Source of the DNA: a virus
Lineage: Duplodnaviria; Heunggongvirae; Uroviricota; Caudoviricetes
DNA: 9,981 nucleotides
Reading direction: 5' to 3' (one strand)
IMG/VR virus record: IMGVR_UViG_2541047944_000001
Below are positions 1-9,981 of the stretch, one piece after another. The notes beneath the pieces were generated by a model, which was not told where the DNA came from, did not search any database, and saw only the letters and a program-made list of their open reading frames with translations. Numbering within the stretch: the first letter of the stretch is position 1; every line of letters begins with the position of its first letter. The translations under genes and the position numbers were made by a program.

Positions 1-288
1 CTACCGCCGCAACCGTTTCGGCTTCTTCCACTGGTAAGTATTTTTCGCGCTCTCCCTCCGTTGTTGAGAACGGCGACGGTATGCCAGCAACTCAAGAACT
101 CTGGTTCGTATGTTGCGCATATCCACGCCGTTAAGCTCAATACCGTCACGGCGCATCACATCAGCCACCACACGCGCGTAATTTTCAGCGGTGACGGTAT
201 CCGGCTGCTTGGCCTGTTCGTCAGCCAGCTGGCTGATTCCACCAGCACGGCGGATTAATCGCAGTATTTCAGATTCAGTCATTATCAT
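1..288 (-). CDS. Hypothetical small protein (95 aa) with a strongly basic C-terminal tail; downstream of and translationally coupled to the small terminase gene
   Basis: Complete ORF (ATG at 288, TAG at 1..3). Its start overlaps the stop of the upstream gene (285..287). C-terminus RRRSQQRRESAKNTYQWKKPKRLRR is Arg/Lys-rich. No recognisable catalytic motif. Confidence 0.45.
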   Translation of the reverse strand: MIMTESEILRLIRRAGGISQLADEQAKQPDTVTAENYARVVADVMRRDGIELNGVDMRNIRTRVLELLAYRRRSQQRRESAKNTYQWKKPKRLRR

Positions 289-770
289 GCCTGTTTTGCG
301 ACCTCATTCACTACGTCATTTTTTACCATCCGGCTGATAATCTGATTACACAAATCGTCAATAATTGACTGCACTCTGTTTACTGCCATCGGTTTAAGCC
401 CGGCATCACGTGCCAGAATATTGGGGAGTTTTGCCAGTTCCTCGCTTACGATTTCCCCCCATATAGCCATCTCTTTTCGCACATCATCGGCGGGTATGAG
501 TTGCGCCGTTTCCTGTTCGAACTTGAGGCGCTCACGTTCGGACTGATACCAGGCCTTACGGTCATGTGGCTCCATTTCTTCCAGTGATGCCGGAACGGGA
601 AGATCAAGAAAACAGGTCAGAATGTCAGTCACCCGATAGAGTTTCAGCTTGTCATGCCCTCCGGCTGGCTGGATGTTTTTCAGCCTTGCCGCCGCAGTCT
701 GACGACATATTCCCGCTATCGCCGCCAGTTGATTAATGTTCAGCATCAGATTTTTCAGTTCTCGATCCAT
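285..770 (-). CDS. Terminase small subunit, Nu1-like (N-terminal HTH DNA-binding domain), 161 aa
   Basis: The ORF track gives 285..857, but the ATG at 770 is preceded by GGAG (ctGGAGcgggtATG), so I trim to 770. The N-terminus LNINQLAAIAGICRQTAAARL is a helix-turn-helix followed by an acidic/coiled region, the same layout as lambda Nu1-type small terminases. Position next to the capsid gene fits a packaging module. Confidence 0.55.
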   Translation of the reverse strand: MDRELKNLMLNINQLAAIAGICRQTAAARLKNIQPAGGHDKLKLYRVTDILTCFLDLPVPASLEEMEPHDRKAWYQSERERLKFEQETAQLIPADDVRKEMAIWGEIVSEELAKLPNILARDAGLKPMAVNRVQSIIDDLCNQIISRMVKNDVVNEVAKQA

Positions 771-923
771 ACCCGCTCCAGAATGTTTTAAACATGCATC
801 TTGCGAACAACTTTCAGAAGAGGTCAAAAAATGCGCTATATGTTGAGCATAAAACAAGCAAAATTAACATACTAAAAATAAAAACACTTAAAATTCAATA
901 TCATAGAAAGATGATGATGACGA

Positions 924-1008
924 ATGAAAATGCAAAAACTAGCCTTTTTCCGCGCCGCTCCCGCCCCGTGGCAGACCACTCCACCGGGAGGACCCGTAAA
1001 AAAGGCGG
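924..1008. repeat. 85-bp direct repeat, copy A (84/85 identical to copy B at 3459..3543), between the capsid stop and the terminase start
   Basis: Direct comparison of the two stretches ATGAAAATGCAAAAAC(T/C)AGCCTTTTTCCGCGCCGCTCCCGCCCCGTGGCAGACCACTCCACCGGGAGGACCCGTAAAAAAGGCGG. Contains nested dyad symmetry (GCCTTTTT...AAAAAGGC; CTCCCG-cccc-GTGG-cagaccact-CCAC-CGGGAG). Confidence 0.9.
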
Positions 1009-1026
1009 CTGTCGCCGCCCTTGTTG

Positions 1027-2940
1027 TCATGCTCCACTCGATTTCAGTAATCCGCGATAATCGAGGGCCGCGACACCTGCATCTATGCGTACTTTCCAGG
1101 CGACACCATCAACAGTAAAGCCCACCTGCTCCTCAAGATATGGCGTATCCATCCCATCAAGATAAGCGACTTCTATTGTGTCCATCCCCTTAGCTGCGGC
1201 TACATACCATTCCTTGCTATTGGCCTTATCAAGACGTGGCTCAACAATTACTTCTGCCATATCTTTCACCACGTTAATGATGCCGGGGTTCTGATTGATA
1301 GTGCTCTCATCACCAACCGGAAAGACTGATGACGATGACAAAATGGCGCGACGCGCGGCAGATTCCAGCGCGGCAGGGACCAGAACAAAAGCAGGGGTAA
1401 TATTCAGGGAGTCGCCGTTAGCATCCTCCTGGAGGCGCATCCGCTTACGGGCTTCATCAAGCCCCACCATGTCCATATCCTTCGCAATAAGATTTTTATG
1501 ATCGGCATGGAATAACGCTTTACCATCCGTAAACTTGCCGTTGCTGGTTAACAGGAGATAAACCAGATTGCCAACTGTTCTGGCGGCTGCGCGTCCCATC
1601 GCCATGGGGATTGTAGTTAACTGGGTCAGGTCATCGTTGATAATGGCCTGACGGGTAACGGAAAAAATATTCCCGTACGTGGCCAGCGCAATAGGTACAC
1701 CTTTATCGCTGGTGGTGATGTATTTATATTCCGCACCTTCCGGTACTTTATCCAGCTTTGAAAAACCATTCAGACCAACGCGCTTTGCTTCATGAAAGTT
1801 TGAAAGCGAACCGGTACGCGTCCATTTCTGGAACGTTTCGCCGCTGTCCTGCCAGCCTTTCAGTACAGATTTTTCAGCCCCACCAGCCAGAATATGAGAA
1901 AAATCACTGCTGCTGTGTGTAAAAGCCGCATTAACAACCTGCGAGCGATTAATAAAACCGCTCACAGTGATACCACGATCAACCAGTGATGCCTGGGCCA
2001 TTTCAAAAAGGCTCATCATCGCGTAAGGGTTGCCTCGTTCAGGGCGTTCATACCCAAGACGGGAATAAAGCCCCTGACGAATTGCATCACCTGTTATGTT
2101 TCCGTTTCCGGCATAGATATGAGGCGGGGTATTTTTATTGGATGGCGTGGACTCGCGCCCCAGCTCGTTCAACAGCTTTTCACGGGCCATTTCCGGTGTA
2201 CATGATGCATCTTCCAGACACGCCATTTTGATCCCGTCGTAACGACTGCCGAACAGGCTAAACACTTCACTTATTCCATTGATGCGCTTCTGTTCATTAC
2301 CAGCAATATTTGCCGCTCCCTGTGGCGGTGTAATCATTCCTTTAATGGTTTCCGGCATATGTAAAAAATCTCCTGTGCGTTTCGATTCAATTCGCGCCAT
2401 TGCTCTGACGGATGGCAACAATTCATCAGCAAAACCGTGCTTAAGGCATTCTTTCCCATCCATCCAGGTTTCATCCTCCAGCATGGCGGTAATTTCCTGT
2501 GCTGATTTGCCCGTTTTTCTGGCATAAGCAGGGATTAACACGGTTTCCACCTTATCCAGCAAATCAGCATAATCACGCATATCGCCAGCATTTCCGCCAG
2601 AGATCCCCCACGGTTTATGGATCATCATCATGGCGTTCTCCGGCATCACTACACGATCGCCAGCCATTGCGACCACCGAAGCCATTGAAGCCGCAACACC
2701 ATCGATATAAACCGTAATGTCTGCCGGATGATTCCGTAGCAGGTTATAGATGGCGATGCCTTCAAACACATCACCACCTGGTGAATGGATCCTCAGATTG
2801 ATATGTGAAACATCGCCAAGGGCTTTCAGGTCTTCCGCGAACTGCTTTGCAGTAACACCGAAGCCGCCAATCTCCTCATAGATAGATATATCCGCCGCTC
2901 CACGAACATCCGCCGCCTTAATGGTGTACCAGCGATTCAT
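1027..2940 (-). CDS. Fused prohead (ClpP/S14-like) maturation protease and HK97-fold major capsid protein, 637 aa
   Basis: N-terminal ~190 aa carry the ClpP-like prohead protease signature (IHSPGGDVFEGIAIYNLL...VYIDGVAASMASVVAMAGDRVVMPENAMMMIHKPWG). The C-terminal ~400 aa resemble HK97-family major capsid proteins (...ATYGNIFSVTRQAIINDDLTQLTTIPMAMGRAAARTVGNLVYLLL...). Long uninterrupted ORF with ATG at 2940. Confidence 0.85.
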   Translation of the reverse strand: MNRWYTIKAADVRGAADISIYEEIGGFGVTAKQFAEDLKALGDVSHINLRIHSPGGDVFEGIAIYNLLRNHPADITVYIDGVAASMASVVAMAGDRVVMPENAMMMIHKPWGISGGNAGDMRDYADLLDKVETVLIPAYARKTGKSAQEITAMLEDETWMDGKECLKHGFADELLPSVRAMARIESKRTGDFLHMPETIKGMITPPQGAANIAGNEQKRINGISEVFSLFGSRYDGIKMACLEDASCTPEMAREKLLNELGRESTPSNKNTPPHIYAGNGNITGDAIRQGLYSRLGYERPERGNPYAMMSLFEMAQASLVDRGITVSGFINRSQVVNAAFTHSSSDFSHILAGGAEKSVLKGWQDSGETFQKWTRTGSLSNFHEAKRVGLNGFSKLDKVPEGAEYKYITTSDKGVPIALATYGNIFSVTRQAIINDDLTQLTTIPMAMGRAAARTVGNLVYLLLTSNGKFTDGKALFHADHKNLIAKDMDMVGLDEARKRMRLQEDANGDSLNITPAFVLVPAALESAARRAILSSSSVFPVGDESTINQNPGIINVVKDMAEVIVEPRLDKANSKEWYVAAAKGMDTIEVAYLDGMDTPYLEEQVGFTVDGVAWKVRIDAGVAALDYRGLLKSSGA

Positions 2941-3146
2941 TATTCCCCCACCGATGCAAAACCATTCTGATTAAGCCAGGTGTTTACGGCATGTCTGACA
3001 ATCTGCGCCACACCTGGTAATGGTTTGTCAGGATGATGATTTATATGGTCGATCCTGTACTGCTTAAGGCGCATAACGGTCTGCGCATCCAGATGAACGG
3101 AACCACCCCTGATATCGCCCGTGTTCAGGTCATTAATACAACTCAC
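2940..3146 (-). CDS. Hypothetical small protein (68 aa), first gene of the capsid operon; possibly a ribbon-helix-helix-like regulator
   Basis: GTG start at 3146 preceded by AGAGGAAG at good spacing. Its stop overlaps the capsid ATG at 2940. The beta-strand/helix pattern (SVHLDAQTVMRLKQY ... VAQIVRHAVNTWL) is compatible with a small DNA-binding fold, but this is weak. Confidence 0.4.
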   Translation of the reverse strand: MSCINDLNTGDIRGGSVHLDAQTVMRLKQYRIDHINHHPDKPLPGVAQIVRHAVNTWLNQNGFASVGE

Positions 3147-3247
3147 AGTAACTTCCTCTTACTGACTAAACTGTGCACATTATTGATCGATAAAAGTGGT
3201 AGATAAACATATTTCTATCACAAAAATAGATTAATGAGATTCAGACA

Positions 3248-3271
3248 CAAAAAAGCCGGAGAAAATCCGGC
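3248..3271 (-). terminator. Putative intrinsic terminator (minus-strand orientation) between the replication module and the capsid operon
   Basis: Stem GCCGGA (3255..3260) / TCCGGC (3266..3271) with a 5-nt loop. On the minus strand the stem is followed by a run of T (plus-strand A-run 3248..3254). Confidence 0.4.
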
Positions 3272-3458
3272 ATAAATATCCCGCCATCTGAACACGTTTT
3301 GACACAGGCAACTCCACCTGGCAGGTGAAAAACAGATTTATTTATATATTTCAATTAATTGCAAACTGGTCTAATGACAGGGAGAAAAAAATATTGTACA
3401 GGTGAAAACAGAAATAACTTTTAATTATCAATAAATTATCACACATGCTGCCGCCGCC

Positions 3459-3543
3459 ATGAAAATGCAAAAACCAGCCTTTTTCCGCGCCGCTCCCGCC
3501 CCGTGGCAGACCACTCCACCGGGAGGACCCGTAAAAAAGGCGG
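3459..3543. repeat. 85-bp direct repeat, copy B (84/85 identical to copy A at 924..1008), between the iteron region and the capsid operon
   Basis: Same sequence as copy A with one mismatch (C vs T at repeat position 17). Flanking sequence diverges immediately on both sides. Confidence 0.9.
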
Positions 3544-3691
3544 ATTGCTCCGGCTTCTGTTACTCGTTGCTTAAAACGGTATGTTATCCCCGTACGGATC
3601 ATCATTCCCCGCCTGTTGTTTTGGTGTGCTTCGCTGTCATAGGCTTTATCTCACAGCAGTAAATTAAAATTTTTGCGTTTTAACCCTTCAC

Positions 3692-3914
3692 CTGTTCACC
3701 TTTTGATATTTTCTCTTTTAATTCATAATGTTAAGGGGTGAACAGTTTCACAAAAACTATTCACCAACTGTTCACCACTGTTCACCCTTGAAGCTCAATA
3801 AACAATCAAAAAGGTGAACAGTGAATAGTTTGGTGAACAGTTCATAAATAACTGTTCACCCTATAATATACTGATATAAAAGATATTTATGACAGGGTGA
3901 ACAGTGGTGAACAG
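3692..3914. repeat. Iteron array: nine perfect copies of CTGTTCACC / GGTGAACAG in both orientations plus degenerate copies; putative P4-type replication origin (ori or crr-like) with an AT-rich spacer
   Basis: Forward copies at 3692, 3768, 3778, 3852; reverse copies at 3737, 3813, 3832, 3896, 3906; a degenerate ATTCACC at 3759. An AT-rich stretch at 3861..3892 could be an unwinding element. To my recollection TGTTCACC is the octamer bound by phage P4 alpha protein at ori and crr. The array lies immediately downstream of the alpha-like gene. Confidence 0.75.
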
Positions 3915-3927
3915 TTATTCCATAAGT

Positions 3928-5745
3928 TTAATTTTTGCTATCGTCATTAGTGACCGATACACATGATGGCATCCAGTCTTCTGATTCCTCCGTCAGTGTC
4001 ACGTTTGAACGCAAACCGTGCTTCGTTTTCCGTTTCATATACTCCCTGCCATATTCCGCCATTGCCCCCGGCATATCTTTACCGAAGCGCGTCAGTGTTA
4101 CAGGTTTACCAAACCCATGTGCCCTCATATAAGCCAGATAGGCATGATAGAGATACCTGCGTGGGCTGAATGGCACAATTTCAGCATTACCCACTAACAG
4201 GCCATCACACATTACCGACGCCATGAGATAGCCGCAGAAGTCCACCAGCGAATCCCCCTCTCGCTTTATCGCCAGTGCTTCTTCAGATTTCTGCTGCTCA
4301 TATAACAGGCGTCTGGCTTCGTCCTGGTCAGCAAACCGTGTAAGCAGATGGCGAATCACTACCGCCAGCTCACCTTCTATTTTTTCCGCCAGCATTGGAT
4401 CGCGTTCGTTCTCCGGTACAACTTCCGAAAAATTGAATATCACCCGACGACGTGAGATCCCCCCGCTGCGGTCACTGAATGACATGGCGTTATTGTTAAC
4501 CGCCAGCACTACTGCCGGAATACGCGTTGAGTAGGGGGCTTTGTGTTTCGGGTCAATTGCCACCTTGTCACCGCCTGTAATGGCCTTAATCCCTGCCCCA
4601 TCACCAGCGTAGCGGGTCATATCCGGCATGATAATCAGCGAAAAGCCAACCACTAACGCGCGTTCCCTTGCATCTTCCAGCGCCTTCATGCTTGCCGATA
4701 CTGTGTTGGCCTTACCCGCCAGCATGGTGCAAATCTCCGCCATCACGCTTTTACCACTTCCCCCTGGACCTGTTACCTCAATGAATAACTGCCAGTCGTA
4801 CCGGTTCGCCAGCACCATGAATAAGGCAGCCAGTACGCGATCCGCCTTGCGGTCATTCTCAGCCACCGAACGGCGTAACCACTTCCAGAAATTCGGCGCA
4901 TGTGTTGCCAGCGTTTCCCCCTCTGCTGGTGGGCTGAAAGGTAATTCACTGGCAATTAACAACCAGTCGTTTTTGTTATGCTCCCGAAAATTACCTGTTC
5001 TGGTATCAAATACCCCGTTACTGAATCCAATCAGGTTACGGGCTGTATTCCCCATTACAGGCAAACTTAACTTCATGGTATCGACCGCCGATTTAATGGC
5101 GTTCTGCGAATAGCTGATCTCCGCATCAATGAAAATCTGCGCCATAGCACGCTGTAACTCTTTATCCTGAACCGGCTCCCATACAATGCCGTTGTAATGG
5201 TGAACAGTGTCAGAGTCGGCATGAATCGCCAGTTCACCGCCATAATGTGCCAGGAGAACTTCGCCGCGTTGACTTGCTCCCATCTGGTTAAGCGCCAGTG
5301 ATGAAGCGTTATCGTCTTTTACCCGCTCTTTTTTCTTTACAGGCAGTTCAACTACCTTTTTCTTTTCCGCCAGCTCTCCCCGCTCACGTTCCAGATATTC
5401 GCGCCAGTTCTCCCGTTTCTGGCTGTGCATTCCTTCAGGATAATAATCAGCATCCCTGACACCTGCCGCTGCCAGTTTCTGCCCGATGGTATTAACAAGC
5501 CCCGGACGCAATAACCCCGCCTGGTAGAGACGCACGCGATAGCGTCCGTCCGGTACGATTTGCAGGTTGTCCAGTTCGGCAAGTTGTTGCTCTCCAAGCC
5601 AGACAGGTGGCACGTTATCGCCAGCCAGTCGCCCGTCCTGTTCCTGCCACTGCTTCGCATGTGCCCACGCATCACTACCCGCAAAAATGATGACTTCCGT
5701 CATTTTGTCACGCGGCTGGTGTTTTAAATTTGGCGCTTTTTTCAT
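3928..5745 (-). CDS. Replication initiator, P4 alpha-like primase/helicase (SF3 helicase domain with Walker A GPGGSGKS), about 605 aa
   Basis: Long ORF with Walker A motif (VTGPGGSGKSV) in the second half, typical of the P4-family phage/plasmid primase C-terminal domain. The first ATG at 5745 is preceded by GGAGAG and overlaps the stop of the upstream ORF (ATGA); the track's start at 5760 is a GTG. Adjacent TGTTCACC iterons support the call. It is shorter than P4 alpha (777 aa, from memory), so the N-terminal primase domain may be reduced or different. Confidence 0.85.
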   Translation of the reverse strand: MKKAPNLKHQPRDKMTEVIIFAGSDAWAHAKQWQEQDGRLAGDNVPPVWLGEQQLAELDNLQIVPDGRYRVRLYQAGLLRPGLVNTIGQKLAAAGVRDADYYPEGMHSQKRENWREYLERERGELAEKKKVVELPVKKKERVKDDNASSLALNQMGASQRGEVLLAHYGGELAIHADSDTVHHYNGIVWEPVQDKELQRAMAQIFIDAEISYSQNAIKSAVDTMKLSLPVMGNTARNLIGFSNGVFDTRTGNFREHNKNDWLLIASELPFSPPAEGETLATHAPNFWKWLRRSVAENDRKADRVLAALFMVLANRYDWQLFIEVTGPGGSGKSVMAEICTMLAGKANTVSASMKALEDARERALVVGFSLIIMPDMTRYAGDGAGIKAITGGDKVAIDPKHKAPYSTRIPAVVLAVNNNAMSFSDRSGGISRRRVIFNFSEVVPENERDPMLAEKIEGELAVVIRHLLTRFADQDEARRLLYEQQKSEEALAIKREGDSLVDFCGYLMASVMCDGLLVGNAEIVPFSPRRYLYHAYLAYMRAHGFGKPVTLTRFGKDMPGAMAEYGREYMKRKTKHGLRSNVTLTEESEDWMPSCVSVTNDDSKN

Positions 5746-6041
5746 TTCTGCTCTCTCCACGCGGCAATCATGTTTTTCAGTTCCTGTAGTTTTTTATCCA
5801 CATCCACACGTGACACATGGTTATTTCTGGAAGTCGGGATTTCCCGCCGGAATCTGCAAATAAAGATCTCCACGTTCAGCGAACTAAGAAATGAATATCC
5901 ATCACGGATAAAATAAACACGGTCAAACATCAGTTCTTTTACCGTTACTCTGTTACCGTTCTTATCCAGATAAATAGCGCCGGGGATAATTTTGTGGTGT
6001 GCATAACCGCTGGCAGTCAAGCCAGATAAATATGTTCTCAT
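5742..6041 (-). CDS. Hypothetical protein (99 aa), translationally coupled to the primase gene
   Basis: ATG at 6041 with GGGGA upstream; stop overlaps the primase start (ATGA). AT-rich relative to the primase. No recognisable motif. Confidence 0.5.
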   Translation of the reverse strand: MRTYLSGLTASGYAHHKIIPGAIYLDKNGNRVTVKELMFDRVYFIRDGYSFLSSLNVEIFICRFRREIPTSRNNHVSRVDVDKKLQELKNMIAAWREQK

Positions 6042-6047
6042 GATTAT

Positions 6048-6368
6048 TTATCCCCGATTTGAATCAGTATTCGCTTTCTTTATGGCATTTAATGCATCTG
6101 TGGCATTTTCAATGGTGCACCGTAACGAAATATCAAACTGCCCAAGCATTGCCAGTAACAAACCGATATTACCCATATCAATGCGCATGGCCTTTTCGTC
6201 ATAGTCCTCATTTTCTGACGCATGCCACATCAGGCTACCAATTGACGCAATACCCATTGATATATTGTCAGTAGCCCCATCCGCAGCGGAATAAACCTTT
6301 TTAGCAATATCATGCTCACAGTTAAAATGCGGATTAATCAGGTACTGGTAATTTGACATATCAGGCAT
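6048..6368 (-). CDS. Hypothetical protein (106 aa), in an operon with the HNH gene and the primase
   Basis: ATG at 6368 overlaps the HNH stop (6361..6363) by 8 nt. AT-rich. No recognisable motif. Confidence 0.5.
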   Translation of the reverse strand: MPDMSNYQYLINPHFNCEHDIAKKVYSAADGATDNISMGIASIGSLMWHASENEDYDEKAMRIDMGNIGLLLAMLGQFDISLRCTIENATDALNAIKKANTDSNRG

Positions 6369-7038
6369 GGCACACCCCCTGACGAATACGGGCGGCGAAT
6401 ACCATCACGCAGCCAGCCGGAGATTGCTGGCGTGCTTCCTGTTCGCTGGTGGCCTCAATGGTAATCACGCGCGGTTGTGCCGTGCTCAGGGCGATAAAAC
6501 GCCAGATATATTTATTCAGGTTGTGCGATTGCCCATTTCCTTCCCCGTGATTAGCAAATTTACCGTGATGCTGCTCGCGAAATTGTTTTACTACTTGTTC
6601 GGCCTCACAAATATCCGCAAATAGGCCTAGTCGATGGTTTTTTCCGTTAACACGACATTGGGCGCGCCATTTTTTATGCTGCTTACTCCAAGTAACTCCC
6701 TTGACTCCCGATGTATTATTTTTTGCCTTTAATATGTTGTATTGATTTTCTGCGCTCGTTGCTTCGCGGAGGTTAGTAATACGATTATCACTGCGTACCC
6801 CGTTGATGTGATCAATTAAATTTGTAGGCCATTTGCCATAAACATAAAGCCATGCAAGTCGGTGCGCTGCATAAAGCCTGTTTTTAACCCCAATCTGAAT
6901 ATAACCATGACTGGTAAGACACCCAGCAACACTACCATTTTTAACGTTTCTGGCTGGTGGAACTCTCCATGTAAAAACGCCTGTTTCAGGGTCGTAATGC
7001 AGGGTTTCACGTAAGTATTTTTGGGTTAGTTCAGCCAT
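6361..7038 (-). CDS. HNH endonuclease with AP2 DNA-binding domain (homing-endonuclease-like), 225 aa
   Basis: HNH_3-type motif (AHRLAWLYVYGKWPTNLIDHINGVRSDNRITNLREATSAENQYN) followed by an AP2-like domain (SGVKGVTWSKQHKKWRAQCRVNGKNHRLGLFADICEAEQVVKQFREQHHGKFA). ATG at 7038 preceded by GGAGG at 7-nt spacing. Confidence 0.8.
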   Translation of the reverse strand: MAELTQKYLRETLHYDPETGVFTWRVPPARNVKNGSVAGCLTSHGYIQIGVKNRLYAAHRLAWLYVYGKWPTNLIDHINGVRSDNRITNLREATSAENQYNILKAKNNTSGVKGVTWSKQHKKWRAQCRVNGKNHRLGLFADICEAEQVVKQFREQHHGKFANHGEGNGQSHNLNKYIWRFIALSTAQPRVITIEATSEQEARQQSPAGCVMVFAARIRQGVCHA

Positions 7039-7135
7039 GACACGCCTCCAATGTGGAGATACTGGAATAGTCAGGGTGAGTTTGGGTATGCTGTGTTCCA
7101 GCCATAATCGTTACTCCTGTTAACGGTTTGGTTAG

Positions 7136-7179
7136 ACGCCCCGTTACTGCTCCTACAGTGCGGGGCGTTGTTTTTTGTG
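7136..7179 (+). terminator. Putative intrinsic terminator in plus-strand orientation with no obvious upstream plus-strand gene
   Basis: Perfect 8-bp stem ACGCCCCG (7136..7143) / CGGGGCGT (7161..7168) with a 17-nt loop, followed by TGTTTTTTGTG. It lies in the divergent intergenic region between the HNH gene and the RHH gene. Confidence 0.45.
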
Positions 7180-7195
7180 TAATGGTAAGTACAAT

Positions 7196-7235
7196 GGTAA
7201 TTACCATGTAACTATAGTAATCAAGGGTAATTACC
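7196..7235. promoter_or_regulatory. Two copies of the perfect palindrome GGTAATTACC (within a 14-bp direct repeat GGTAATTACCATGT), candidate operator sites overlapping the RHH gene start and the divergent promoter region
   Basis: Palindromes at 7196..7205 and 7226..7235, centre-to-centre 30 bp (about three helical turns). A TATAGT -10-like hexamer (7213..7218) lies between them. The second palindrome abuts the ATG at 7236. Confidence 0.5.
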
Positions 7236-7409
7236 ATGTCAACACCATTAGAGAAACGATCGCCACCATACCAAATGCGACTACCAGAAGAATTTAGAGC
7301 GCAACTTGAGGAGGCAGCCAAGGCAGACGGCGACACCTCATTAGCTACTTGGATTAAACGAATACTCCGCAAAGAATTACAACAGCGCGGTATCGAGCCC
7401 AAAGGCTGA
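7236..7409 (+). CDS. Ribbon-helix-helix (Arc/MetJ-like) DNA-binding protein, 57 aa; candidate repressor; not in the supplied ORF track
   Basis: Translation: MSTPLEKRSPPYQMRLPEEFRAQLEEAAKADGDTSLATWIKRILRKELQQRGIEPKG. The segment YQMRLPEEFRAQLEEAAKADG...SLATWIKRIL matches the Arc-family beta-strand/helix/helix pattern. A strong terminator follows at 7504..7536, and palindromic operators sit at the start codon. Only a weak SD (AAGGG). Confidence 0.6.
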   Translation: MSTPLEKRSPPYQMRLPEEFRAQLEEAAKADGDTSLATWIKRILRKELQQRGIEPKG

Positions 7410-7503
7410 CAGCCAACCAGCAAGCCAGCACACTGATCACATTGCCCACCAGCCGCAAATGTGGCATTGTTGGTGATGCGTTCAAGTTTAGTGTGTATCC
7501 ATT

Positions 7504-7536
7504 GGCGACCGCCCCCGGTCGCCTTTGTTTTATGTG
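7504..7536 (+). terminator. Intrinsic terminator for the RHH transcript (plus-strand orientation), located between the convergent RHH and AlpA-like genes
   Basis: Perfect 8-bp GC-rich stem GGCGACCG (7504..7511) / CGGTCGCC (7516..7523) with loop CCCC, followed by TTTGTTTTATGTG. Confidence 0.6.
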
Positions 7537-7550
7537 CCATCACTCCCCCC

Positions 7551-7739
7551 TTACACCGTCTGCGTTCTGCGAGTGGATGCAAGATAAGCATCGAGATCAG
7601 TGCGCATATACAGCACTTTGCGCCCCAGCTTATGAAAAGGGATTTTTACCTTGCCAGTACACGCCCAGTTAGCAAGAGTCTGGACACTTACCCCCAAATG
7701 CTCGGCAGCTTCTTTGCGGGTCATCTTTTCTAAATGCAT
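7551..7739 (-). CDS. alpA: AlpA / excisionase-family helix-turn-helix DNA-binding protein (MerR-like HTH_17), about 62 aa
   Basis: MTRKEAAEHLGVSVQTLANWACTGKVKIPFHKLGRKVLYMRTDLDAYL is a typical excisionase/AlpA winged-HTH. The ATG at 7739 has GGTGA 5 nt upstream; the track's start at 7748 is a GTG. Position between integrase and replication genes is typical of P4-like and PICI elements. Symbol given by family resemblance only. Confidence 0.7.
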   Translation of the reverse strand: MHLEKMTRKEAAEHLGVSVQTLANWACTGKVKIPFHKLGRKVLYMRTDLDAYLASTRRTQTV

Positions 7740-7811
7740 GAGTATCACCGTATACTTCTGATTAAGAACAGGTATACGTTATTTAGCGATGGGGAAGTCT
7801 TGAAGACAGGA

Positions 7812-7841
7812 AAACCAGATACAAAATCGCATATCTGGTTT
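7812..7841. promoter_or_regulatory. Perfect 10-bp inverted repeat AAACCAGATA-N10-TATCTGGTTT upstream of the AlpA-like gene, followed by two CTGGATT direct repeats at 20-bp spacing; candidate operator or recombinase arm-type sites
   Basis: Arms at 7812..7821 and 7832..7841. CTGGTTT at 7835 and CTGGATT at 7855 and 7875, each 20 bp apart. About 70-100 bp upstream of the alpA start. Confidence 0.35.
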
Positions 7842-7880
7842 ACATGGCTGAAATCTGGATTACAGAGGATAAAACTGGAT

Positions 7881-8567
7881 TTATTCTTTGTCTCCAATAA
7901 CTAACTTAAAATCCCTGTTTTTTTGCGGGGATTTTGGATTCATCCCCGACTCCTTAAGCCATCTCTCTATAGTCCCAACTACAGGGACATCATTCCATTT
8001 ATTGCGTAAGTGCGCGTATATCTCTGCGGATAGCCCGGGTAAACTGGCATTAGGGTATTTTTTCCAAGTGTTACAAGCTATAGATAACGCTGTTGATTTA
8101 TGCCTGTTTGTTTTTCCTTTCTTTGCTTTACTACGGTCTTCACTGATAATTTTCTTTACATTAGCTATATCACGTACTGATTTTAATAAATTCTCCGACA
8201 CTAAAATCGCATATCTTTCACGTAACTGATCTGCAAGTCTGTTGAAACCAAGAACTTCAAATATAATGGCAGCTTTCAAAATATCATTGAATTCTGAATA
8301 TGCACTATTAAATTTTTTATCAAAATCATCTCCATACCCGGCACATACAGAAATATTAACCTTTAAATCCTTATTTTCTATCTCTGACGATAATGATAAT
8401 CTCTCCTCCAGAGACATTTTAGATGGTGTGATATTTGCCATATCGCATATCGTTTTTTTTACAAAAGAAGACGCCAGTTCATATCTAATATAATCTGCAA
8501 TAGTATTCATATCCTTCGCATCATTATGGTCAAATTCTATTGCAGCAATGATTTTATTTTCTGACAT
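7881..8567 (-). CDS. Hypothetical protein (228 aa), AT-rich cargo gene immediately downstream of and overlapping the integrase gene
   Basis: ATG at 8567 preceded by GGTGG; overlaps the integrase stop by 14 nt. By eye roughly 35% GC against roughly 50% for neighbours. No recognisable catalytic motif. Confidence 0.7.
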   Translation of the reverse strand: MSENKIIAAIEFDHNDAKDMNTIADYIRYELASSFVKKTICDMANITPSKMSLEERLSLSSEIENKDLKVNISVCAGYGDDFDKKFNSAYSEFNDILKAAIIFEVLGFNRLADQLRERYAILVSENLLKSVRDIANVKKIISEDRSKAKKGKTNRHKSTALSIACNTWKKYPNASLPGLSAEIYAHLRNKWNDVPVVGTIERWLKESGMNPKSPQKNRDFKLVIGDKE

Positions 8568-9981
8568 TCAAACCACCATTTGAATTAACGATACTAAATA
8601 GTAATGCGCGTTTCTCACTGTCACTCATACTCTCCAGTGCGGAAAGCAATTGCGCATCGATAGATTTTTTACTCTCCACCAGCCCGGCATGTTCCAGAAT
8701 TGCCCGTTCTATCCGTGACGCTGGCTCCAGCAGTTCATCAGCACCAAAATGTAAATACCCCTGCGTTACGTCAGCACTTCGCATAGTACGGTGATTCATC
8801 AGGCGCTTGAGGATGTAATTGCCCACGCCCACCAGTTCGGCAACCGTTCCGAACGTCCGGCGTGCATCGTGCCATTTGAATGGTACAGGGGAGAGCATTT
8901 CATCGTTCGACTCTGGAACAGTAGCCGCGCTTATCCGGTCTATGATGTGCCGTGTTTCCTGAATCACTCCCTTCACACCAGGAAACACCAGAACATCATC
9001 AGCGTTTTTTATTTTCAGTCGGCGGTGGAACATTTCCCGCAACGTATCAGTAATCGGTAATTCGAGCGGATCCCCGTTTTTCGTGGTGTCTATCCAGAAA
9101 AAACGACCGCCCATATTCACGCGATCCCACGTAAGGCCAAAAATTTCTGATTTCCTCAGTCCGGTAAAAAGCGCCATTTCCACGGCATCGCATACCGTCA
9201 CCGCTATATCATCCCTTTCCTGTTCGCCCTGGTCGCGCACAGCAGCTACAGCAGCAAACCAGCGGGGAAAATCATGCAGGCGGATACGTTCCGTTTTTCT
9301 TACCGTTCCGTGCCACTGGCGCTTGGTGCTCAGTACCAGAGTCGGCGGATCCGGTAAAAGAGTATTACCCGCATCATCACGGTAATGATCATGCGCAAAC
9401 CGACACACAGCACGTAGCGCACGCGCCCATAAATCGGCCTGTGCCTTGCTTCCTGTACCAACCCCAGCCCGTAACGTGGTTTTATCAGCACCGAACCATA
9501 CAGCCCCATCAGTGATGGCCTTATGCCGTTGTTCCACCCGTTCGCGGGAAATACTGGCGAGGGTATGGGCCATCCAGTCACCGGAATAATTCTGTAATAT
9601 GCTGCGGTACTGTTTTTCTGTGGCGGGTTTCAGGCGGTGGCCACGATTTTTTACGTAGGCGTCAATCGCCTCACTCAGCGTTATCATGGCCTTGTTGTTA
9701 GTGCGCTTTGCTATGTTCGGATTTATCCCCGTTGTGGCGACTTCGCCAAGGAGTTCCATAGCTTTAGCCCGGGCATTATCCACGCTCAGATCAGGAAAAC
9801 GCCCCAGCGTTGCACGAATAAATTTTCCGTTACGCTTACGGGAAATGCAGAAACTTTTCACACCAGACGAACCTACACGGACACGCAGCCCGTTAACCTC
9901 CGTATCACCATATTCGACCTGTCCATGTTCCGGCGTTGGCAGTTCTGCAATTTTTACTTTAGAGAATCTGAATAATTTCAC
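8554..9981 (-). CDS. int: Tyrosine recombinase / integrase, P4-type (N-terminal arm-binding domain plus C-terminal catalytic domain); 5' end at the window edge
   Basis: N-terminus (...GLRVRVGSSGVKSFCISRKRNGKFIRATLGRFPDLSVDNARAKA...) matches the P4-integrase arm-binding domain pattern. The C-terminus carries a catalytic-type HxxR motif (WHDARRTF) and a candidate Tyr (QGYLH). The ORF reaches position 9981 with a GTG as its first codon, so the true start may be here or just beyond the window. Confidence 0.9.
   Translation of the reverse strand: MKLFRFSKVKIAELPTPEHGQVEYGDTEVNGLRVRVGSSGVKSFCISRKRNGKFIRATLGRFPDLSVDNARAKAMELLGEVATTGINPNIAKRTNNKAMITLSEAIDAYVKNRGHRLKPATEKQYRSILQNYSGDWMAHTLASISRERVEQRHKAITDGAVWFGADKTTLRAGVGTGSKAQADLWARALRAVCRFAHDHYRDDAGNTLLPDPPTLVLSTKRQWHGTVRKTERIRLHDFPRWFAAVAAVRDQGEQERDDIAVTVCDAVEMALFTGLRKSEIFGLTWDRVNMGGRFFWIDTTKNGDPLELPITDTLREMFHRRLKIKNADDVLVFPGVKGVIQETRHIIDRISAATVPESNDEMLSPVPFKWHDARRTFGTVAELVGVGNYILKRLMNHRTMRSADVTQGYLHFGADELLEPASRIERAILEHAGLVESKKSIDAQLLSALESMSDSEKRALLFSIVNSNGGLNVRK

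Follow-up and report, generated by a model that had tools for sequence, protein, structure and literature searches.

The 9,981-bp virus record IMGVR_UViG_2541047944_000001, hereafter called the window, very likely represents nearly all of an 11.0-kb classical Gram-negative phage-inducible chromosomal island (PICI) that has the backbone of the island EcCICFT073, occupies the 3' end of ileX, the tRNA-Ile2 gene, with mug on one side and nfeF on the other, and depends on a helper phage for the rest of its virion. The genes named in an initial annotation of the letters alone, a P4-type integrase, a superfamily 3 (SF3) primase-helicase, a ClpP protease-capsid fusion, and a small terminase, are all present, intact, and on the minus strand according to Pfam, PHROG, and NCBIfam profiles, and its view of the window as a PICI-like phage satellite, neither a prophage nor a classical P4, was borne out. 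The proposed resemblance to capsid-forming PICIs (cf-PICIs), which take only tails from their helpers, was not: portal, head-tail adaptor or connector, large terminase (TerL), and packaging HNH genes are missing between the att repeats of the element.

An exact-protein look-up with one open reading frame (ORF) of the window, the HNH-Icd fusion described below, retrieved a contig (L021; L numbers denote the contigs and loci compared) that is 100.000% identical to the window across all 9,981 bases. Its gene order is nfeF, int, ..., orf93, tRNA(CAT), mug, rpoD; nfeF precedes the integrase gene, and a tRNA gene with anticodon CAT lies ~1 kb beyond the terminal ORF (orf93), with mug and rpoD behind it. 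RefSeq annotates this tRNA as tRNA-Ile (ileX/tRNA-Ile2), while ARAGORN calls it Met owing to the CAT anticodon. The att repeats of L021, which include the tRNA 3' end, are imperfect (6813 to 6877 and 17855 to 17919; 82% identical over 65 nt) and lie 11,042 bp apart; thus, the att sites and flanking tRNA that the initial annotation advised looking for do exist. Their mismatches are paired positions of the tRNA T stem (CTGGAC/CCAGC versus TTGGGT/CCAAC), so that the displaced fragment and the 3' end of the functional tRNA represent different alleles. In a 98%-identical copy from strain E10 (L001), the repeat is a perfect 49 bp and the spacing is 11,094 bp. Because host genes and att repeats flank the element in L021, the window holds every gene of the element. 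To the left, where TerL, portal, and connector genes were to be sought, there are the host genes tRNA-Ile2, mug, and rpoD instead. Large terminase, portal, connector, tail, and lysis genes were found on neither side within the element (L021 flanks and window ORFs against Pfam and PHROG), so that the tail genes are absent as anticipated and a lysis module is absent as well. The location in the chromosomal tRNA-Ile2 site rules out the window copy as a PICI of the helper-embedded kind (HE-PICI).

The PICI model of SatelliteFinder has a core of integrase, alpA-type regulator, primase-replicase, capsid-morphogenesis gene, and small terminase, and forbids portal, head-tail connector or attachment, tail, and holin genes, while TerL and the head-tail adaptor/connector are specific to cf-PICIs (PMC10085698). 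The 11,042-bp element falls within the PICI size range of about 8 to 15 kb, and a scan of all its ORFs revealed no tail, holin, portal, or head-tail connector gene. It has an integrase at one end with att repeats, a primase-replicase followed by iterons, and both a capsid-morphogenesis gene and a small-terminase gene. It therefore has the listed PICI features and lacks the cf-PICI-specific ones, the one soft point being its regulator. PICIs with all five core components (type A), to which the window's core corresponds, occur almost only in Escherichia coli (97%; PMC10085698). The features of the window are collected in Table 1.

Table 1. Features of the window with their positions, strands, and the evidence for each assignment
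Feature	Position	Strand	Evidence
Terminal 93- to 95-aa ORF (orf93), backbone gene	1..288	-	phrog_1561; 73% identical to last EcCICFT073 gene
Small-terminase homologue DUF1441, 161 aa, mosaic	285..770	-	PHROG 141 'terminase small subunit' 2e-57
cos1: cosQ from 997, predicted cosN core GGGCGGGAGCGG 966-955, cosB 954-771	771..997	-	Alignment to lambda and PhiR47_1 cos
Fusion of ClpP-like prohead protease, linker/scaffold, and HK97-fold major capsid protein (637 aa; lineage specific to satellites)	1027..2940	-	CLP_protease 1.7e-35; Phage_capsid_4 3.6e-53
68-aa ORF, translationally coupled to capsid gene	2940..3146	-	phrog_4934
cos2: second cosQ-cosN core copy, without phage-like cosB	3459..3552	-	94-nt repeat, 95% identical to cos1
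Predicted replication origin with 8 or more GGTGAACAGT iterons in direct and inverted orientation	3714..3929	.	Repeat search
Primase/SF3 helicase (pri-rep), 610 aa	3928..5760	-	D5_N, DUF5906, Pox_D5; 49% identical to EcCICFT073 primase
DUF4222 protein, backbone gene	5742..6041	-	PF13973; 34% identical to EcCICFT073 homologue
Conserved 106-aa ORF	6048..6368	-	phrog_15327 1.4e-71, function unknown
HNH_3/AP2 homing-endonuclease domain fused in frame to Icd-like cell-division inhibitor, 225 aa	6361..7038	-	HNH_3 1.3e-17
Palindromic 18-nt motif CAATGGTAATTACCATGT, three copies	7180..7239	.	Repeat search
Arc-like (YlcI/YnfO) small repressor, 57 aa, divergent	7236..7409	+	phrog_228 Arc-like repressor 3e-7; Pfam Arc 0.0057
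AlpA-position helix-turn-helix (HTH) regulator/excisionase, 65 aa	7551..7748	-	HTH_17 1.3e-12; TIGR01764 excisionase; phrog_66
228-aa low-GC ORF, accessory-gene position between int and regulator	7881..8567	-	Kept in L001, L002, L021, L022
Tyrosine integrase, 475 aa, P4-type domain layout	8554..9981	-	Arm-DNA-bind_3 and Phage_integrase; phrog_1 integrase

The backbone is shared with EcCICFT073, the model PICI of Gram-negative bacteria (PMC6092414, PMC6739421). Both islands measure about 11 kb, have two cos sites, and run in the order integrase, HTH regulator, divergent YlcI/Arc-like gene, Icd-like gene, small ORFs, DUF4222, primase, origin, 68-aa ORF, capsid gene, cos1, packaging-specificity gene, and 93-aa ORF; the proteins in common are Icd (90% identical), the primase (49%), orf93 (73%), and DUF4222 (34%). 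The morphogenesis cassettes differ. EcCICFT073 carries a lambda gpE-type capsid gene, a gpD-type decoration protein gene, a 137-aa ORF, RppA, and the lambda cosN GGGCGGCGACCT, while the window has the ClpP-major capsid protein (ClpP::MCP) fusion, a full-length homologue of the DUF1441 small terminase (TerS), and a GGGCGGGAGCGG core; no similarity was found between the two islands in the capsid gene or in the gene at the position of the redirecting phage packaging (Rpp) protein. Their 68-aa ORFs occupy the same position but are unrelated in sequence, EcCICFT073 resides between ycfD and phoQ rather than at ileX, the integrases differ, and the window's regulator matches HTH_17, not Phage_AlpA. 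Lambda and phi80, the helpers of EcCICFT073, fit its lambda-type cassette. E. coli PICIs thus have one backbone on which a helper-matched cassette is exchanged, gpE/gpD/Rpp/cos in EcCICFT073 versus mEp460/Gifsy-type ClpP::MCP/DUF1441 TerS/cos in the window. EcCIIHE3034 (L018, 9645 to 10187) combines lambda-type capsid and decoration genes with a 180-aa 'terminase small subunit' in the RppA slot, which indicates that this slot is filled by different solutions on similar islands. The 2018 PICI catalogue lists no element at ileX, and the two of its elements that were checked, EcCIIHE3034 and EcCI042, have the lambda-type cassette.

The architecture, including the combination of tRNA-Ile2 site and CLP_protease gene, is already documented in published surveys. 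PICIs with a CLP_protease gene in tRNA-Ile2 have been described (PMC10111431), and the window shares with them the site, a distinctive integrase, the CLP_protease capsid gene, and the lack of a profile-detectable alpA; it looks like the same genotype. The window copy differs in that an HNH domain is fused to icd, the single-stranded DNA-binding protein (SSB) module seen in relatives is missing, and no HE-PICI has invaded it. A capsid gene was reported for 21 of 29 reference Gram-negative PICIs (PMC10111431), and the order of capsid gene before terminase gene, which the initial annotation took to be unusual, is normal in E. coli PICIs as well as in proteobacterial cf-PICIs.

Against NCBIfam NF045540, 'ClpP-like prohead protease/major capsid protein fusion', the capsid fusion reaches 898.6 bits (cutoff, 475), and it retains the ClpP Ser/His/Asp motifs. 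It is 56 to 57% identical to proteins annotated as 'head maturation protease' or 'protease/scaffold' in phages mEp460, mEp043, mEp213, PhiR47_1, VT1-Sakai, and many Shiga toxin 2 (Stx2) phages. As mEp460-type phages lack any other capsid gene, the fusion is the head protein that they normally use and was not invented by satellites, contrary to the earlier impression that it is peculiar. The satellite version nevertheless constitutes a lineage of its own: identities are 93% among satellites, 99% among phages, and 57% between the two groups, and none of 50,697 phage records contains a satellite-type capsid protein (>57% identity). Relative to the phage fusions, the satellite fusion has lost 29 aa from the linker after the protease, carries 7 inserted aa in the capsid domain, and is extended by 7 aa at its N terminus. 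Degradation of the gene, raised as a possible objection to the satellite interpretation, did not occur. In a set of six copies (the window and copies at ileX-nfeF, clpS-cspD, and smrA-abgR), all capsid genes (637 aa) and all terS genes (161 aa) are intact, and the ratio of nonsynonymous to synonymous substitution rates (dN/dS) is 0.03 to 0.12 for the capsid gene and 0.05 to 0.09 for terS; both genes are under strong purifying selection. The dN/dS of orf93 is 0.1 to 0.5. Every relative with at least 90% capsid identity has the 68-aa ORF at the same place, 206 nt ahead of where the capsid gene starts. It was considered as a gpW head-completion protein and rejected, having no gpW or other Pfam match and no similarity to the 68-aa ORF of EcCICFT073.

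A repeat search revealed a 94-nt direct repeat at 924 to 1017 and 3459 to 3552, the two copies of which correspond to the cos sites of Table 1. On the minus strand the repeat reads TTTACGGGTCCTCCCGGTGGAGTGGTCTGCCACG/GGGCGGGAGCGGCGCGG, compared with TTTACGGGTCCTTTCCGGTGATCCGACAGGTTACG/GGGCGGCGACCTCGCGGG at the lambda junction (slashes mark the junction), and the junction core is ACGGGTCCTCCCGGTGGAGTGGTCTGCCACG/GGGCGGGAGCGG in the window versus ACGGGTCCTTTCCGGTGATCCGACAGGTTACG/GGGCGGCGACCT in lambda; a 12-nt cohesive end, GGGCGGGAGCGG, is predicted for the window. As cosQ is rightly spaced from the cosN-like core in both repeats, the layout is of the lambda type, although the core itself is different. 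The cosQ-cosN core of the window is 93 to 95% identical to that of mEp460/PhiR47_1-type phages and is nearly identical in PhiR47_1 and the prophage L013; the linear record of mEp460_4F5 begins 5 nt ahead of the GGGCGGGAGCG core. Site cos1 lies directly upstream of terS, as lambda cos does relative to Nu1, and is 81 to 87% identical to the region upstream of the phage DUF1441 gene. The second site, cos2, is located between the origin and the 68-aa ORF and departs from the phage and cos1 sequences right after the core. The two sites, 2,535 bp apart, enclose precisely the 68-aa ORF plus the capsid gene. An 84-aa ORF that spans cos2 overlaps the repeat and was treated as spurious.

Assignment of the DUF1441 protein to the small terminases draws on its phage homologues, whose genes lie between cos and a GpA-type TerL gene; the satellite gene has no TerL gene after it. 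The protein is 53 to 71% identical to the annotated small terminase of mEp460/PhiR47_1-type phages, collinear with phage TerS over its full length, and ~60% identical to it over residues 97 to 145. Its earlier description as 'Nu1-like' stands with respect to gene position, the PHROG name, and the MerR-like winged HTH (wHTH) N-terminal domain, but not with respect to sequence, hhalign giving a probability of only 0.9% against lambda Nu1 with a shallow four-sequence profile. Identity as an Rpp was likewise rejected by sequence (hhalign, 0.2% against RppA with the same shallow type of profile; no BLASTP match). In an AlphaFold model with a predicted local distance difference test score (pLDDT) of 79.5, residues 1 to 55 form a winged HTH, for which MerR-family wHTH proteins gave the best, though weak, Foldseek matches (E, 0.09 to 0.4). 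The MerR-like wHTH class has been reported for Nu1 and RppC. A PDB sequence search with DUF1441 gave no match, even though the RppC structure has been solved; only the general MerR-like wHTH class is common to both.

The terS gene is a mosaic whose 5' half (770 to 501) encodes the DNA-binding wHTH shared with phages and whose 3' half (500 to 288) is satellite specific. At the nucleotide level, the window is 96.2% identical to prophage L013 in cosB and 98.5% in the 5' half of terS but 59.2% in the 3' half, while the values against satellite L016 are 73.9, 75.1, and 97.7%, respectively. The cosB of the window is 74% identical to that of PhiR47_1. The phages L013 and PhiR47_1 display the converse pattern, with 77% identity in the 5' half of terS and 98.6% in the 3' half. 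The switch takes place at the segment KAWYQSERERLKFEQETAQLIPA, invariant between satellite and phage; in the model, the switch falls between helices 68 to 87 and 94 to 113. In an alignment of 32 DUF1441 proteins, the satellites share a C-terminal half without the acidic tail carried by all phage homologues, and their N-terminal halves represent several types, which phages have as well. This pattern of identity indicates that cosB and the DNA-binding domain behave like a specificity cassette exchanged between phages and satellites, whereas the C-terminal half belongs to the satellite lineage alone. The high identity of the window to L013 (96 to 98.5%) had prompted the idea that the satellite copies the packaging specificity of its helper. 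As a general rule, this idea was rejected on the basis of the three embedded satellite-prophage pairs in which both TerS proteins are visible. The N-terminal half of the satellite protein is of the window type in all three, and that of the prophage is of the mEp460 type in L023 and L031 (which may not be independent) and of a different type in L037. The differing halves favor a logic of piracy, in which a satellite-specific cosB and TerS redirect the helper TerL while the shared cosQ-cosN core serves the helper nuclease. The TerS mosaic is one possibly new detail of this element, since the cited parts of PMC10111431 and PMC10085698 contain no analysis of it or of the cos sites of this cassette, and it offers a handle for experiments on packaging specificity.

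These observations suggest the following course of events for the helper-dependent PICI proposed here. A helper of the mEp460/PhiR47_1/Gifsy lineage would induce the island, which would excise and replicate as concatemers. With the winged HTH at its N terminus, the satellite TerS would bind the cosB of cos1, which is satellite specific, and it would recruit the GpA-type TerL of the helper, which would then cut the shared cosN. DNA would enter heads that need the portal and completion proteins of the helper, and helper tails would be added next. The capsid fusion most likely takes part in shell assembly, by redirecting its size or by forming the shell, and/or interferes with head assembly of the helper; this is the least certain step. 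Several points weigh against the scheme. Induction, helper identity, and packaging are, for this type of cassette, all inferred. The satellite TerS has no acidic C-terminal tail, and thus its direct binding to TerL is not assured. The 65-aa regulator does not match the Phage_AlpA profile (PF05930), and the tRNA-Ile2 CLP_protease genotype is described as one that 'lacks alpA' (PMC10111431). Packaging that starts from cos1 and ends at cos2 would yield an 8.5-kb genome without the capsid gene, and the role of cos2 is unexplained, as it is in EcCICFT073. Furthermore, the capsid gene of EcCICFT073 is reported to be dispensable for interference or transfer, and full-size heads are used (PMC6092414, PMC10111431), which leaves a structural role for the capsid gene of the window unproven.

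The reported dispensability also underlies a rival that we consider quite possible but do not favor, namely that the fusion is mainly an interference weapon that poisons helper procapsids, or has no structural role and is dispensable, with the island packaged as multimers into full-size helper heads. Besides the finding that EcCICFT073 is transferred in phage-sized capsids and that its capsid and decoration genes are dispensable for interference and transfer, four lengths of 11.04 kb add up to 44.2 kb, close to the PhiR47_1 and mEp460 record lengths of 43.0 to 44.5 kb. Such a role fits poorly with strong purifying selection over the whole 637 aa, protease triad included, with an old and exclusive satellite lineage of capsid proteins 57% identical to those of any phage, and with a 29-aa deletion in the linker between protease and capsid, which is a part of the protein that could affect assembly; moreover, other satellites make small heads with capsid homologues (SaPIbov5 Ccm, probably PmCI172). 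From these same traits one may tentatively draw an opposite and rather unlikely picture in which this PICI subfamily is a minimal 'shell-forming' intermediate between classical PICIs and cf-PICIs. The polyprotein would build its own, probably smaller, shell on a stolen helper portal, and TerS would act in two parts, the swapped cosB and wHTH half setting specificity and the tail-less satellite C-terminal half handling the helper TerL or TerS. In line with this picture, the capsid protein and the TerS C-terminal half are old satellite-only lineages under strong purifying selection, and the cosB/wHTH half differs from that of the embedding helper in 3 of 3 pairs. We also have doubts about a reading in which DUF1441 acts like an Rpp, lacking a TerL-binding tail, forming mixed complexes with the helper TerS, blocking helper packaging, and redirecting the terminase to the satellite cosB. 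The gene does occupy the exact Rpp position downstream of cos1 on an EcCICFT073 backbone, the satellite C-terminal halves lack the acidic tail of every phage homologue, the invariant central helix KAWYQSERERLKFEQETAQLIPA could mediate hetero-oligomers, and Rpps are thought to derive from TerS (PMC6739421); yet there is no detectable similarity to RppA (hhalign, 0.2%) or to the solved RppC, the contact to TerL could be retained in a protein collinear with phage TerS throughout and ~60% identical to it over residues 97 to 145, and EcCIIHE3034 has an annotated full small terminase in the same slot.

Very improbable, by comparison, is a cf-PICI that makes complete capsids from its own proteins, uses its own terminase, and takes only tails from a helper. 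The cf-PICIs, such as EcCIEDL933, additionally carry portal, head-tail connector, HNH, and TerL genes (10.1101/2022.09.08.507074) and measure about 15 kb. The element shares with them the left-hand backbone, an HK97 capsid protein of its own with a protease, a terS, and the position of the morphogenesis gene before terS, and an identical HNH-Icd protein occurs on the true cf-PICI L020 (Phage_capsid, Peptidase_S78, portal, HNH, Terminase_4, TerL). Of the cf-PICI features examined, the element has its own major capsid protein and head-maturation protease, here in one fused gene rather than as separate genes (Phage_capsid and Peptidase_S78) as in L020. The portal, head-tail adaptor and connector, TerL, and packaging HNH are missing; the only HNH of the element is the homing-type HNH_3/AP2 domain fused to icd in the regulatory region, not part of a packaging module. 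Host genes stand immediately outside the att repeats, and the same set of genes is missing from six compact chromosomal copies at three sites and from 27 loci in IMG/VR. A capsid gene and terS on a small island therefore do not make a cf-PICI; portal, connectors, and TerL are what discriminates. Decay of a lambdoid prophage with head genes kept by chance is scarcely credible. Although the capsid gene, terS, and cos are homologous to parts of lambdoid phages, the same compact architecture recurs at no fewer than three chromosomal sites with different integrases, the element has its own nonlambdoid replicon and origin, intact genes under purifying selection, and precise att repeats, and its capsid protein and TerS C-terminal half belong to satellite lineages absent from phages. 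Equally hard to sustain is a P4-like satellite that exploits P2-type helpers, for which the P4-type layout of the integrase, the weak P4-family match of the primase C terminus, the AlpA-position regulator, and the Icd-like gene could be invoked. No homologue of Psu, Delta, or Sid is present (no ORF matches any of them in Pfam or PHROGs, as the initial annotation had noted), the cos sites and cassette match lambdoid siphophages and not P2, and the backbone is that of EcCICFT073.

With the helper-dependent classical PICI as the preferred reading, the helper lineage can be narrowed down. Judged by homology, the cassette and cos sites are of the type used by one lambdoid lineage (mEp460, PhiR47_1, mEp043/213, Gifsy/Fels, many Stx phages), in which the head module is ordered cos, DUF1441 TerS, GpA-type TerL, gpW-like gene, portal, ClpP::MCP, cement, and tails. 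The head modules of mEp460, PhiR47_1, mEp043/213, cdtI, Gifsy-2/Fels-1, and Stx-type phages resemble the satellite cassette in DUF1441 TerS, the ClpP::MCP fusion, and cos architecture. They differ in additionally having TerL, gpW-like, portal, cement, and tail genes and in sequence, the phage proteins being 99% identical among themselves and the satellite being 57% (capsid) and 59% (TerS C-terminal half, nucleotides) identical to them. In L023, a PICI lies inside the TerL gene of a prophage, so that TerL residues 1 to 333 and 326 to 700 flank the island, and the same layout is found in L031, L037, L042, L046, and L075. These relatives carry a different integrase and sit in prophages of exactly the window's head type; their configuration, the HE-PICI, has already been published, and, experiments aside, they are the best indication at hand of the helper lineage.

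A full-length satellite-type capsid gene is present in 195 of 5,426 complete E. coli genomes (about 3.6%), which makes this capsid lineage a common player in phage-mediated gene transfer. The cassette occurs in compact elements of 10 to 11 kb at ileX-nfeF, clpS-cspD, and smrA-abgR. A census covered 79 IMG/VR loci, 27 of them with at least 90% capsid identity; 23 of these 27 have PICI backbone genes beside the capsid gene, and tblastn detected no portal or TerL inside the element in any of the 27. Some relatives contain an insert of ~800 bp between the capsid gene and cos1/terS (L002, 16080 to 16810; L008, 9270 to 9970; L024; L025), shifting the terS offset in L024 and L025 to +2955 and +2985 instead of +2171; it is annotated as 'tail assembly protein' and truncated 'phage tail protein', odd cargo for a PICI. 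At 277 to 317 kb of GCA_031665325.1 (L016/L017), at least three PICI copies with this cassette are apparently arranged in tandem (int...orf93, int...orf93), each with an mEp460-type TerS N-terminal half. More PICI lineages with ClpP::MCP fusions are represented in IMG/VR by L048 to L081 (capsid 71 to 79% identical) and L083 to L102 (62%). Those in the 77 to 79% tier are without the DUF1441 terS and, in large contigs, are flanked by the portal and cement genes of a prophage, apparently within the ClpP::capsid gene of that prophage itself. In the 62% tier, terS is absent and orf93 comes straight after the capsid gene; some of these copies lie within TerL.

The logic proposed for the window, a satellite TerS with its own DNA specificity using the helper TerL, a helper-type cos, and a capsid homologue comparable to Ccm, resembles that of Staphylococcus aureus pathogenicity islands (SaPIs) such as SaPIbov5. 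The proteins are unrelated and the SaPI hosts are Gram positive; in the window, the TerS and capsid devices are combined within one cos system, with a protease-scaffold-capsid polyprotein as the capsid homologue. Two questions are raised by the element: the role of conserved capsid genes in PICIs that are not capsid forming, reportedly dispensable in EcCICFT073 and strongly conserved here, and the purpose of two cos sites, of which only the one beside rppA is reported to be needed in EcCICFT073 (PMC6739421).

The replication module consists of the primase-helicase and the iterons. The protein scores 95.1 bits against TIGR01613 'primase, P4 family', under the cutoff of 108.7, and an N-terminal primase domain was not detected with Pfam or NCBIfam. 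The GGTGAACAGT iterons start directly after its stop codon; PICI origins are located 3' of pri-rep (PMC6092414), and the position of the iterons points to a replication origin. Between 3146 and 3928, the window is without the SSB gene and adjacent small ORF that lie between the origin and cos2 in most relatives and in EcCICFT073 (compare L001, 18146 to 19523).

At the other end, the integrase adjoins an att repeat and nfeF in both L021 and L001 and was assigned as specific for the tRNA-Ile2 (ileX) site. The gap between int and the regulator, which is the usual slot for PICI accessory or defense genes, holds the 228-aa ORF. Its region has a GC content of 0.34 (8001 to 8500), and it has no match in Pfam, PHROG, NCBIfam, or PADLOC; the PADLOC defense-gene scan of ORFs without an assigned function yielded nothing beyond a weak homing-endonuclease match for the HNH ORF. 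The 65-aa regulator holds the position of alpA in EcCICFT073. The substantial ORFs of the window are all on the minus strand, and the 57-aa Arc-like gene lies on the opposite one, as RefSeq annotates YlcI/YnfO in relatives and EcCICFT073. A 186-aa minus-strand ORF (7031 to 7591) overlaps this conserved gene and was treated as spurious. The three CAATGGTAATTACCATGT copies occupy the interval between the divergently transcribed units, immediately upstream of this Arc-like gene. Their position between the divergent regulator and the leftward operon makes them probably the operator of the island's switch.

The HNH domain is attached to the N terminus of the Icd-like gene, which in close relatives encodes a 67-aa Icd only. 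The fusion matches phrog_99 over aa 3 to 175, phrog_6196 over aa 163 to 224, and NF033153 (Icd-like) over aa 177 to 220. An identical 225-aa protein is indexed in 187 collection blocks and occurs on three elements, of which L021 is a classical PICI, L020 a true cf-PICI, and L023 a PICI embedded in a prophage. Its presence on three kinds of element suggests that HNH-Icd either travels with the shared PICI regulatory backbone or homes into it.

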